A stretch of 64,000 bases of DNA, taken from NCBI GenBank assembly GCA_963801165.1, contig CAWDDT010000007.1, positions 32,001-96,000 of the forward strand, written 5' to 3'. The notes under the pieces are model-generated. The model saw only the letters and a program-made list of their open reading frames with translations, searched no databases and was not told the DNA's origin. A program made the translations under genes and the position numbers. Shown here in pieces: positions 8,469-11,511 of the stretch; positions within the stretch are counted from its first letter, which is position 1, and every line of letters begins with the position of its first letter. Source of the stretch: an uncultured bacterium. GTDB taxonomy: Bacteria > Actinomycetota > Acidimicrobiia > Spongiisociales > UBA5794.

Positions 8469-8647
8469 CGCAATCGAACAACAATCATGCAGCGAGAACG
8501 CAGCACTTCGGCGCGTAAGCGATGACGGCACCTCGAGGCTCGGCTCGGTGGCCACTGAGGGTGGCGCTGCGCGGGGTGGGGGTGCGCTCGTCGGGCTGTT
8601 GAGTCGATCCGGTTGCATCGATGCGCTATTTGTGGCATGTTTGTGGC

Positions 8648-8884
8648 ATGGCAAGAGTCCGGGTTAGTACAACAGTGGATGAAGGGCTTCTCGAAGAAGC
8701 CAGAAGACTGCGAGCCGGAAGTAACGACGCTGCGCTGCTGGATGAGGCGCTTGGCGCACTCCTCGCGCAACATCGTCGAGCCCAGGTTGACGCAGGCTAT
8801 GCAGCCTATGACGCGATACCTCTAGACGAGCCCGATGAGTGGGGCGATCTTGCGTCATTCCGAGAGGCGGCCGGATCGTCATGA
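8648..8884 (+). CDS. mazE: Antitoxin of a MazEF module (mycobacterial MazE5-like)
   Basis: RVSTTVD..LL..AR ribbon-helix-helix-like N-terminus; [15 protein letters not shown]-terminus; ATGA overlap with the toxin. Confidence 0.75.
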
Positions 8885-9210
8885 ACGGTCTGCCCACCCG
8901 GGGTGAAGTCTGGTGGTGTGAACTGCCGGAGGTCTCTCGACGACCGGTCGTCGTCTTATCCCGTGCGGCTGCGATCCCTCGACTGCGAAGGACGGTGATT
9001 GCGCCGTGCACAACCAATATCCGGGGACTGCCTAGCGAGGTTGTGCTCGAGCCGAGAGAAGACCCGGTTCCCAGGGTATCGGCAGTCAACCTCGACTCGA
9101 TCGAGAGCGTCTCGGTGGGATCGCTCACGCAGCGGGTGGGTCGCCTCAGCGATGACCGCATGCGTCAGATCTGTGCCGCTTTCAACATTGCTATGGATTG
9201 TGATCCATGA
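8881..9210 (+). CDS. mazF: PemK/MazF family endoribonuclease toxin
   Basis: [38 protein letters not shown]. Confidence 0.9.
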
Positions 9211-9374
9211 GAAGCGCGATTGTGCGTAGAGCAACAAATATCGAGCGAGAACGAGCACATCGCCGAACCACGCAGACCGAAGCCTCTTTGTGTCAAGGGG
9301 GTCTTTTTGGGGTTTGGGCGCGGTGGGTTGGCCTGGCCTGTTCAGGGGGCCGGGTTGGTTCTAGTGTTGGGGCT

Positions 9375-9470
9375 GGGTCCGGGAAGTGACTTGTCCGAAG
9401 AGCCGGCCTTTCAGGATGTTGAGCCGGTCACGCTGGACTTAGAGTCGTTCCTGAGTGTCCTCCCGGACCC
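9375..9470 (-). ncRNA. Putative structured RNA in the IS110 right end
   Basis: Closing stem GGGTCCGGGA/TCCCGGACCC, two inner stems (GTGAC/GTCAC, GGAC/GTCC) and complementary TCAGGA/TCCTGA segments. Confidence 0.45.
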
Positions 9471-9477
9471 GTTTCGA

Positions 9478-10506
9478 TCAGGTTGCTGTGGAGCGTCGGG
9501 CATCTGCGATGAGGTGCTGGTAGGCCCGATCGGAGATCTTCCGTTTCAGCGCCCGGATGGCTTCCTTGCTGGTTTTGCCTTCCGCGATCTTTTTGTCGTA
9601 GTAGGTGCGGCCCTCGCCGGGATAACGGAGCTGGCAGATAGCGGCGATGTGGATGGCGTGGTTGAGTTTCCGGTTCCCTCTTGGGTTGAGACGATGCCGC
9701 GGCCTGTCGCCTGAAGACGCTTCGATCGGTGCAGTGGCGTTGTAGGTAGCGAAGTGTCCTTTGGTCGGGAAACGGGTGACGTCTCCGGTGAACCCGATGA
9801 TGATCGCAGCACAGATCGGACCGATCCCGACAATGTCAGTCAGGGTTGTTGCTGATGCGGTAACAGCCACTTTGATTCGTTTCTTCGAGGCTTTCAACAT
9901 GGTGTCGAGTCGGGCAATGTCATCGACCAGTTCGGTAGCGATAACCAGCCGATGCCGTGTTACCTCCCCATCGACTGTGACCCTGGTGAGTAGCTGATTC
10001 GCTTTGTTAACAGTGATTTCTGAGCCGATCCCGCCCGGTTCGAGCTCGAGCAACAATGCATGTAAGCGGGTGCAGTGCTTGTTACGTAGCCGGGCCATGT
10101 CGCGGTGTCGTTTCGCCAGTATTCGCAGCACTTGGGTGTGGTCATCTGGCCGGACCCGGGCCAGTCGATCAGAACGCAACGCCGCGATCGCGACCGACCG
10201 GGCATCATTCGGGTCGTTCTTTTGTGACCTTCCCGAGCCCAACACCCGAACCCGCGACGCCAACAGCGGTGGCACATCAAAAACAGTCTCACCGGTCGCA
10301 ACTAGCTGTTGAGCGACCAGATAACCGAGCCCGTTCGCCGACTCGACAGCCCATTCCCGCTTCTCGAAACCAGCAGCCCATTCGCACAGCCGGTCCGTCT
10401 GGCTGGTTGATGCACGGAGCTTGAACTCGTCAAGTACTGCTTCGTTGTCGTCGACCGCCACTGCAGTGTGGGTTGCCTTGTGCGGATCAATACCGATCAT
10501 GGTCAT
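9478..10506 (-). CDS. IS110 family transposase/recombinase (RuvC-like DEDD plus Tnp20 domain)
   Basis: IGIDPHK, AVES, KNDPND (DEDD); GIGP..AA; EASSG catalytic Ser; GNRKLNHAIH; AIRALKR. Confidence 0.95.
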   Translation of the reverse strand: MTMIGIDPHKATHTAVAVDDNEAVLDEFKLRASTSQTDRLCEWAAGFEKREWAVESANGLGYLVAQQLVATGETVFDVPPLLASRVRVLGSGRSQKNDPNDARSVAIAALRSDRLARVRPDDHTQVLRILAKRHRDMARLRNKHCTRLHALLLELEPGGIGSEITVNKANQLLTRVTVDGEVTRHRLVIATELVDDIARLDTMLKASKKRIKVAVTASATTLTDIVGIGPICAAIIIGFTGDVTRFPTKGHFATYNATAPIEASSGDRPRHRLNPRGNRKLNHAIHIAAICQLRYPGEGRTYYDKKIAEGKTSKEAIRALKRKISDRAYQHLIADARRSTAT

Positions 10507-10529
10507 GAGAATGCCTTCCTCCTAGACGA

Positions 10530-10712
10530 TGGTGAACCGAGGTGGGCACTCCTGATTTGGGTCGATGTGTTCTCGCCTCTTTCGAGCCACACCCCAGTCG
10601 GGTAACCGGTCGGCAAGCATCTCGTTCGAAAGCCAACCCCAAAAGGGGTGGCAGGCACTGATAGAGCCCACCGATCGGACCACCCGAACGCTACGGAACC
10701 ACCGCAACGCAT
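10530..10712 (-). ncRNA. Putative IS110 bridge RNA
   Basis: Contains a 9-nt copy of the left junction/flank (10654-10662 = 10730-10738) and an 8-nt copy of the right end (10575-10582 = 9282-9289), each in a CTC...GAG-closed internal loop; boundaries approximate. Confidence 0.75.
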
Positions 10713-11007
10713 GCCACCAGTATCAATCCGGCACTGATGCGTGCCGCGCATCGAGTACCCACAGTGGTGGTCTTGGTTTGGCCGCAGGATCAGAGCGCGG
10801 TGTTGGGACAAGAGTTGCAGTGACGGGACACGAGTCAGAGTCAGGCAAGGAGTGAGATGAAGCCCACAACGATCACGACACTACCGGCACATCTCCGCTC
10901 GGTAGGACGAATACTCTGGTCGTCACGGGTGACTTGCCTCGAGCGCGCTTGGTAGATATCGCCGCGATCCGATCGCCTCGGTAGGCTCGTGGGAGGGAGG
11001 TGCCCAC

Positions 11008-11511
11008 ATGCTGTCATTGCCGGGCCTTGAATTTGCGCTGCCCGAGGAGCCGGGTGCGGATCAGTCGATGCGCGAGCTGCTTACCGGCTGGCTGGATTAC
11101 CAGCGGGCCCATTTCCGCCGCAAGCTGCGTGATCTGTCACCTGAAGGGATGGCGGCGTGGTCGGTGCCGCCGCTCGAGTTGTCGATCCTCGGTTTGATCC
11201 GGCACCTGGCGCAGATGGAGCACTTCTACCTGGCGTGGGGGCTCGGCGGGGGACAGCGTTTCGAGCTGTACGGTGAAGACGACTATGCAGGCGGCAGTGT
11301 CGACACTCTCGCCGAGGACTGGGAGACCTACCGGCGTCACGTCGCCGCTGCCGACACAGCGATCGCCGCTTTGCCGGATCTGGATGCGGTGGGGAAGGGC
11401 CATGGCCGGCCGCTTGGCGCCACACTGGTCAAGATGATCGACGAGTACGCCGTACACAGCGGGGAGGCCCACATGCTCCGTTACGCCGCGCTGGGACGGA
11501 TGGTCAGGTGA
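11008..11511 (+). CDS. DinB/DUF664 family protein
   Basis: L..WLDYQR, LSILGLIRHLAQME, MIDEYAVHSGEA. Confidence 0.8.
   Translation: MLSLPGLEFALPEEPGADQSMRELLTGWLDYQRAHFRRKLRDLSPEGMAAWSVPPLELSILGLIRHLAQMEHFYLAWGLGGGQRFELYGEDDYAGGSVDTLAEDWETYRRHVAAADTAIAALPDLDAVGKGHGRPLGATLVKMIDEYAVHSGEAHMLRYAALGRMVR

Follow-up and report, generated by a model that had tools for sequence, protein, structure and literature searches.

Natural variation of guides and flanks points to a bridge RNA in the left end of an IS110-group insertion sequence from an uncultured acidimicrobial bacterium

The DNA considered here, referred to below as the window, is a stretch of 64,000 nucleotides (nt) from an uncultured bacterium (GTDB lineage Bacteria; Actinomycetota; Acidimicrobiia; Spongiisociales; UBA5794; assembly GCA_963801165.1, contig CAWDDT010000007.1, positions 32,001 to 96,000). 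On its minus strand lies an IS110-family element of about 1.45 kb, which consists of a recombinase gene, a left end of 223 nt upstream of the gene and a right end of 199 nt downstream of it, and which interrupts one copy of a repeat that is dispersed in the genome (Table 1). IS110 bridge RNAs have been an established finding since 2024, and most of the family members that are catalogued are predicted to have one, so that a further example by itself changes nothing. The present case belongs to a well-populated clade in which natural reprogramming of the guides can be followed from copy to copy, and in which the guide to the right half of the target is 7 nt long. The reading to which the analysis leads, with a probability of roughly 0.85, is that of an ordinary IS110-group insertion sequence whose left end encodes a bridge RNA with readable target and donor guides. 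A preliminary description of the locus had proposed such an RNA together with a particular core dinucleotide and target, and the fate of these two parts of the proposal differs.

The first base of the element is 10729 (G in this copy), and its last bases, at 9289-9279, are AAAGAGGC-T-TC. The recombinase matches the Pfam families DEDD_Tnp_IS110 (PF01548, 1e-23, residues 4-155) and Transposase_20 (PF02371, 5.8e-19), and scores 171.1 bits, against a cut-off of 140, with the NCBIfam model NF033542 ("IS110 family RNA-guided transposase"). Its matches in the Protein Data Bank (PDB) are ISCro4 (9t56, the best, E 6.4e-11) and IS621, with E-values of about 1e-10. Residues D7, E55, D98 and D101 align opposite the DEDD residues of the N-terminal RuvC-like domain of IS621, and S265-G266, in the motif ...IEASSGD..., supply the catalytic Ser-Gly of the C-terminal Tnp domain; the serine was assigned by motif, the HMMER alignment having put it one residue off. 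All of the guide strings lie within 10729-10507, upstream of the open reading frame (ORF), so the guide region is of the left-end type, which places the element in the IS110 group and not in the IS1111 group. The long left end and short right end that characterize the IS110 group are weakly expressed at the lengths given above. A second full copy in the same genome (G000:C13) has an intact ORF, 83% DNA identity and 304 identical residues among 342 in the protein, and the similarity between the two copies begins and stops at the proposed junctions.

Table 1. Coordinates of the element, its predicted functional parts and the repeat that it interrupts. Positions refer to the window unless a contig is named.
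Feature	Position	Strand	Remarks
IS110-family element	9279..10729	minus	1451 bp including one copy of the 2-nt core; placed by the second genomic copy and the junction consensus of related loci
Recombinase gene	9478..10506	minus	342 aa, ORF intact
Left target flank	10730..10738	minus	ATCAGTG + core CC; identical to left target guide
-10-like hexamer GATACT	10719..10724	minus	17 nt from TTGACA if ends joined
5' stem-loop (helix 1)	10688..10710	minus	9 pairs, 98.8% of cells paired
Target-binding stem-loop	10602..10684	minus	outer stem, internal loop, inner hairpin 10652-10632; helices 2-4
Left target guide ATCAGTGCC	10654..10662	minus	7 nt of left target + core CC; 9/9 against flank
Right target guide CGAACGA	10622..10628	minus	reverse complement TCGTTCG, flank TCGGTCT
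Donor-binding stem-loop	10537..10597	minus	11-pair stem (helix 5) closing a loop of ~40 nt
Left donor guide AAAGAGGC	10575..10582	minus	equals right end 9289-9282 (8/8)
Right donor guide AATCAGG	10551..10557	minus	complement of CC-TGATT (core + left end); 6/7 in window
TTGACA, probable -35 box of junction promoter	9291..9296	minus	conserved in right ends of related loci
Right end	9279..9289	minus	AAAGAGGC, then T, then donor-type core TC
Right half of interrupted target repeat	9229..9278	minus	begins with G at 9278; nhmmer match C7:41229-41287
Uninterrupted repeat copy	8473..8567	minus	central GTGCCG; nhmmer match C7:40473-40567
Repeat groups (G000)	C4:177465-182970; C4:413552-414400; C9:375479-378655; C6:17798-18613; C5:608753-610482		

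The comparison on which the guide assignment depends was made by scanning one genome per species, in which 261 relatives were detected and 80 loci, with 59-93% protein identity, were kept. The titles of their records are nearly all those of metagenome-assembled genomes (MAGs) of Acidimicrobiia, in agreement with the host group, Actinomycetota, named in the preliminary description. At least 240 nt of upstream sequence was available for 73 loci; L025, L071, L072 and L079, which have no recognisable left end, were dropped, which leaves 69 loci for the test of the left target guide. The structure alignment comprises 64 distinct left ends, and the right target guide was tested on 60 loci. L073 was left out of the right-guide count, and both L061 and L073 were left out of the flank reconstructions (their right flank is another left end). 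Six of the related loci (L006, L010, L016, L027, L029 and L031, with 69-91% identity) lie on short contigs of MAGs labelled Gemmatimonadales, Gammaproteobacteria, Kiloniellales or Ectothiorhodospiraceae, and these labels could reflect either mis-binned repeat-rich contigs or transfer between phyla.

The RNAalifold consensus of the left ends consists of a 5' hairpin, a target-binding stem-loop and a donor-binding stem-loop, with 43 pairs in all. The fraction of alignment cells that are paired is 95.8%, compared to 91.3% in shuffles (a value reached by 0 of 500) and 32-46% when the partners are slid against each other, and 20 of the 43 pairs change on both sides, compared to 11.4 +/- 1.5 in the shuffles (again 0 of 500). 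Changes on both sides affect 13 of the 23 pairs in helices 2-4, which form the target-binding stem-loop, and 6 pairs of helix 5, in which 96.9% of cells are paired; folded as a single sequence, the window RNA has a z-score of only -2.63. The parts of the two loops picked out in the preliminary description are all present: CTC-T and CTC-G precede the loop strings, and the hairpin GCCACCCC TTTT GGGGTTGGC, the string TTTCGAACGAG and AAATCAG-GAG can be read as described. Its view of loop 1 as closed by a CTC...GAG clamp does not extend to the relatives, where just 19 of 64 left ends have a G directly following CGA.

The two strings that had suggested guides occur where they were reported, ATCAGTGCC at 10662-10654 in loop 1 and at 10738-10730 in the left flank, and AAAGAGGC at 10582-10575 in loop 2 and at 9289-9282 in the right end. 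In the 64-kb window ATCAGTGCC is found 3 times against an expectation of 0.48 (2 of 100 shuffles reach 3), and AAAGAGGC likewise 3 times against 1.03 (9 of 100 shuffles). The window alone is weak evidence for the guide reading, and it is the comparison with relatives that lifts that reading above chance.

For the left target guide, the nine bases that precede the invariant TG in loop 1 were compared with the nine bases preceding the element. The identity per position over the 69 loci is 0.10, 0.62, 0.80, 0.39, 0.94, 0.99, 0.97, 0.97 and 0.97; positions 1-6 give 265 matches compared to 196 +/- 8 in shuffled pairings of guides and flanks (0 of 10000 reach the observed count), and positions 2, 3 and 6 are each significant (0 of 2000 shuffles for each). 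For the right target guide, the seven bases that end in CGA were reverse-complemented and compared with the right flank, in which the match begins one base after AAAGAGGC. In this register, NNNNCGA:TCGNNNN, the match per position over the 60 loci is 1, 1, 1, 0.55, 0.92, 0.67 and 0.42, and the variable positions give 153 matches compared to 102 +/- 6.6 in shuffles (0 of 5000), while the other three offsets are at or below chance; 8 of the 17 distinct right guides match the flank consensus 7/7. The relatives carry 27 distinct left and 17 distinct right target guides. Covariation of guides with flanks in other copies, which the preliminary description had named as its check, is accordingly present on both sides of loop 1, directly on the 5' side (69 copies) and as the reverse complement on the 3' side (60). 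Within the window genome, a comparison that takes in 22 repeat copies and one left-only fragment finds positions 2-9 of the left guide matching 8/8 only at the occupied site. Loop and flank both read ATCAGTGCC in the window copy, and in the C13 copy the loop reads TGACGTGCC and the flank GGACGTGCC; these two copies do not differ in the donor loop or in either element end.

The donor guides match the ends of their own element 7/7 or 8/8 in most relatives, and the agreement of the left end CGGATT with the complement of AATCAG at 5 of 6 positions, noted previously, holds for the window copy. The informative cases are two elements on actinomycete plasmids, with 42-44% protein identity to the window recombinase. 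In that of Frondihabitans (NZ_CP014514.1) the right end is AGAGAGGC and the left end is CC-AGCTT, and the loop strings are AGAGAGGC and AAGCTGG; in that of Rhodococcus rhodochrous (NZ_CP083975.1) the right end is ACAGAGGG and the left end is TC-GACTT, and the loop strings are ACAGAGGG and AAGTCGG. Because both guides change together with both ends in these two distant relatives, the donor-guide reading can be regarded as settled, and the earlier division of the RNA into a target-binding loop 1 and a donor-binding loop 2, with its reading of the left guides, is borne out by covariation with flanks and ends. In both elements the left target guide equals the left junction 9/9. CGATGG, the right target guide of the Rhodococcus element, is fully complementary to the CC-ATCG of the right junction, but that junction was located by the guide string itself, paralogue matches having failed to mark the boundary, and the agreement is to that extent circular. 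The two elements share with the window element the layout of the RNA, the TG after the left guide, the inner hairpin and the position of a core of the form YC; none of the four guide strings is the same, and the targets, among them an IS30-family element, are unrelated.

The junctions define the point of insertion. The consensus at the left junction is ...G[T/G]GCC followed directly by TGATTG, with CC in 67 of 69 copies. L022 is the sole copy with TC at this junction (GGTGTC, then TGATTG), which is the type that the other strand's product, or a variant target, would be expected to leave; in L017 there is a shift of one base. The right-junction consensus is TTGACAC-AAAGAGGC-W-TC followed by G, with TC in 70 of 70 and a preceding base that is T, A or G by clade. 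The element inserts in the centre of the repeat, between GTGCC and G, and the TTC belongs to the element. Target and left junction have CC as the core, donor and right junction have TC, so that only the C is shared, and the target predicted from these junctions is ATCAGTG-CC-GGTC. The empty site would then read ...ATCAGTGCCGGTC... (ATCAGTG-CC-GGTCTGCG).

The preliminary description had instead proposed a bridge RNA with a GC core and the target ATCAGT-GC-TTCG, with CGAA as the right guide and the left guides at the same offset from the core, for which the empty site would read ...ATCAGTGCTTCGGTC... / ...ATCAGTGCTTCGG... / GTGCTTCGG. In the window copy the strings fit this scheme: GC stands at positions 7-8 of both loop strings, TTCGAA is self-complementary, and CGAA is indeed complementary to TTCG. 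The last pairing works there because the window copy happens to have a G at one loop position; over the 60 loci the match in that register is 0.02-0.57, so the guide register fails in the relatives. Nor do the two left guides stand at one offset, since the donor match ends one base before the core while the target guide runs through it. Among uninterrupted copies of the repeat in the window genome, the centre is GTGCCG in 17 of 20 and GTGC-WTCG in 0 of 20. Empty sites were also reconstructed in silico for 59 loci and compared with paralogues. The paralogue is closer to the reconstruction that omits WTC than to that of the GC scheme in 37 loci, equally close in 12 and less close in 10, and a paralogue with at most 3 mismatches in 20 is found for 20 loci when WTC is omitted, for 4 under the GC scheme and for 3 with a butt-joint control. 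A simple count of motifs in the flanks of other genomes (39 vs 4) was discarded in favour of this test, as the two patterns differ in degeneracy.

Further evidence on the same question comes from natural tandem junctions and from true empty sites. The tandem junctions in L061 and L073 read AAAGAGGC-WTC-TGATTG, with WTC between the two ends, which is the form of joined ends if W and T are bases of the element and C is shared. In these, a right end in -ATC or -TTC runs straight into another left end; that in L061 lies at about 1172-1260, that in L073 at about 2700-2760, and the second left end of L073 stops after ~25 nt. Such junctions could have formed when a circle inserted at a resident copy's left junction. 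The Frondihabitans element (L119, 195689-198311) sits within an IS30-family transposase gene on a plasmid, and two uninterrupted IS30 paralogues on the same plasmid provide real empty sites, ...CAATATTT-TC-CGAAAGG..., for comparison with the occupied site, ...CAATATTT-CC-[AGCTTG...AGAGAGGCG]-CC-CGAAGGG.... These place the 2-nt core exactly at the position proposed for the window element, two bases further on than the GC scheme would have it. By a hand count, the promoter that joined ends may form would have a spacer of 15 nt under the GC scheme instead of 17. A GC core is therefore contradicted from several sides and has next to no remaining likelihood; the accompanying statement that the core is unlike the CT of IS621 was right as far as CT is concerned and wrong in putting GC in its place.

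The promoter concerned is one that would arise only when the ends of the element are joined. On joining, TTGACA in the right end would come to stand 17 nt from GATACT in the left end and the RNA would be switched on; the circle junction would read TTGACAC-AAAGAGGC-TTC-GGATTGATACT. Promoter calling on the integrated window copy found none, while the natural tandem junction in L061 was called as a sigma-70-type promoter (TTGACA-18-GAGAAT, 10/12, 0.0 expected). A promoter across joined ends that is lacking in the integrated state fits the junction promoter described in published accounts (PMC11208160, PMC11187229).

What the bridge-RNA reading has to explain is observed directly, namely the anatomy of the element, the covariation of its base pairs, that of the guides with the flanks, and the positions of the junctions. 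The same observations can be set against another proposal, in which the left end is merely a structured 5' leader or promoter of the recombinase mRNA and the flank matches arise from related elements sitting in related repeats. The targets come from a single repeat family, so that host history could make flanks and elements change together, and the shuffles include no control for relatedness. Against this, the 3' strand of the loop matches its flank as a reverse complement, and does so in one register of four only; the guides of the two copies within one genome differ, each fitting its own site; the donor-loop strings change with the element ends in distant relatives at unrelated sites; and the same architecture is experimentally established for IS621, as described in PMC11208160. 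The leader proposal is consequently very improbable. A different doubt concerns the window copy alone, which might belong to a bridge-RNA element and yet be an immobile relic. It starts with G (GGATTG), where the other 68 of 69 copies have T, and this base lies beside the crossover, where it mispairs with an A of the right donor guide; in addition, its right target guide fits its own flank at just 5 of 7 positions. The ORF is intact with all catalytic residues, however, the remainder of the RNA is canonical, and the G equals the base that the target has there (GTGCC-G). The substitution may thus be a point mutation that possibly impairs the copy, or may reflect a crossover one base further along, which is equally possible, and the relic explanation has perhaps a minority chance of being correct.

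The two features of the window copy just named also weigh against the bridge-RNA reading as a whole, and several others have to be counted with them. Position 1 of the left target guide shows no covariation (7 matches vs 10.5 expected), and position 4 is weak. The guide shuffles take no account of how the elements are related, and the exact counts therefore exaggerate significance; the strand specificity, the register specificity and the contrast within the window genome are independent of that relatedness. On the donor side, covariation within the clade is thin, the loop and the ends being near-invariant: a variant left donor guide or right end occurs in four loci, and of these L078 alone is compensated, with AAACAGGC in both loop and right end and with a TGATA left end facing TATCAGG; the differences in L036 and L053 are uncompensated, and for L048 no right end could be located. 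The left donor guide ends one base before the two core positions, in the window clade as in the Frondihabitans and Rhodococcus elements, and no conserved inner helix is predicted in the donor loop; both features are unlike IS621. A search of Rfam 15 over 9000-11200, with E-values up to 10, returned no relevant family (six were listed, none of them a bridge RNA). No orthologous empty site was found for the window copy (flanks searched in 40 relatives) or for the C13 copy (left flank, 20 relatives). The junction-proximal DNA is not conserved in the relatives searched, and the DNA upstream of the three best right-flank matches is without the target. With no true empty site in this genome, the junction model rests on paralogues, tandem junctions and relatives.

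If the bridge-RNA reading is nonetheless accepted, a mechanism can be outlined by analogy with IS621, in which the RNA would be made, would be bound by the recombinase and would direct strand exchange. The 5' strand of the target loop (ATCAGTG + CC), which has the sense of the left target, would base-pair to the target's bottom strand, and in the donor loop AAAGAGGC has the sense of the right end, with AATCAGG complementary to the core and left end (CC-TGATT). The DEDD/Ser recombinase would use this RNA to bring the excised element, with its ends joined, up to the centre of the ~100-nt repeat, and strand exchange would occur beside the shared C.

The difference between the two junctions raises the question of when the guides pair with which partner. 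Top-strand cleavage in IS621 takes place after core position 9, and the right guides pair with the core and the right arm (PMC11208158); the handshake bases pair with the other partner after exchange and are mismatched before it, as set out in PMC11208158 and 10.1101/2025.05.14.653916. In the window element the right target guide ends in ...CGA, the GA of which complements the TC of the donor, and the right donor guide ends in ...CAGG, the GG of which complements the CC of the target. Each right guide thus fits the base of the other partner. It is conceivable, from these strings, that the handshake is shifted to the first core position, the shared core being a single C, but this interpretation is offered tentatively. 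A one-base shared core would provide a natural test of guide pairing before as opposed to after strand exchange. If both strands were exchanged across a mismatched base, junctions of either type should result, so the uniform asymmetry of CC on the left (67/69) and TC on the right (70/70) fits top-strand products alone; that it is the footprint expected if only such products are inherited is a speculative explanation, with the odds somewhat against it. If true, the asymmetry would constitute a natural-history argument for the single-strand copy-and-paste route proposed for IS621 in 10.64898/2026.08.31.748434. The Rhodococcus relative is a mirror case, with TC on the left and CC on the right, in which both target guides follow their own junctions.

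Among characterized systems, one of the closest is IS621 of E. coli (Durrant et al. 2024, PMC11208160; Hiraizumi et al. 2024, PMC11208158), which, in those accounts, has a DEDD and Ser recombinase, an RNA encoded in the left end with a 5' hairpin and two guide-bearing stem-loops, a left target guide of 7 nt plus 2 core bases, right guides that complement the core and right arm, and a promoter rebuilt on joining of the ends, a feature that is here predicted. The differences are that the proteins match with an E-value of just about 1e-10, that the core here is YC, with an invariant C at the second base, while that of IS621 is CT, that the first core base differs between the junctions, and that the right target guide has 7 nt instead of 4. 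To these are added the left donor guide that ends short of the core and the donor loop without a predicted inner helix, both mentioned above, and the window element is a case known by its sequence only. A shared CT core is a property of IS621 and its near relatives that the window element lacks; the published IS621 analysis selected guides with a CT core (PMC11208160), which implies that other cores exist. ISCro4/IS622 (PDB 9t56; 10.1101/2025.05.14.653916) is the closest solved structure, and the handshake principle described for it would apply, with the difference that the handshake-like base would be located, as read from the sequence, at the first core position and not at positions 6-7. The seekRNA systems of ISEc21 (IS110 type) and of IS1111 members (Siddiquee et al. 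2024, PMC11187229) resemble what is predicted for the window element in that an upstream non-coding region yields a short RNA matching the two strands of its target, and in that a circular form creates a promoter; they belong to a different clade. A C-anchored core would widen the range of addressable sites for tool building, only if the element is active.

The target itself is the centre of a repeat of about 100 nt, the consensus centre of which reads ...CGAGCG-NNGAGGTGCCGATATCG...GCTCGTTCTCGC; the similarity of the paralogues to the right flank begins at the G at 9278. Insertion at a fixed site in dispersed repeats (REP, attC) is described as a known habit of IS110 and IS1111 elements (PMC11187229, PMC11208160), and ISPa11, ISKpn4 and ISPst6 (PMC11187229), as well as ISPpu9 and ISPpu10, likewise occupy a fixed position and orientation in a dispersed intergenic repeat. 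The repeat of the window genome differs from these in being neither a known REP nor a demonstrated attC. Its copies form same-orientation arrays with a spacing of 0.6-1.2 kb, seven of them at C4:177.4-183.0 kb, and small ORFs, including toxin-antitoxin pairs, lie between them, most of the other ORFs being without a Pfam match. One such pair, on C4, consists of a weak BrnT-like match and an RHH protein. Genes of the phage-integrase family occur within a few kb of most of the arrays. The layout is integron-like, and an identification of the repeat as an integron attC was rejected as unshown: no integron integrase scored above the cut-off (the best TIGR02249 score was 66.6 bits, against 265), and four copies of the repeat fold no better than shuffles (z -0.77 to +0.62). 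The element targets a cassette-array repeat that is itself uncharacterised.

Some smaller observations concern the surroundings of the repeat and fragments of related elements. Between two repeat copies, at 8621-9210 on the plus strand of the window, lie a VapB-like antitoxin (a weak match) and a PemK/MazF-like toxin (1e-15), and the insertion sequence is situated about 70 nt past the stop codon of this cassette. A solo fragment in the same genome (L003, G000:C5:134141-134209) consists of the first ~70 nt of a related left end with the usual left junction, ...GACGTGCC followed by TGATTG, and is broken off by unrelated sequence with repeated GTCACAC motifs, which is possibly the end of another mobile element. 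In another genome of the same genus (L106, G008:C839:3308-3538), a related right end (AAAGAGGC-ATC-G) lies within a close paralogue of the very repeat interrupted by the window copy.

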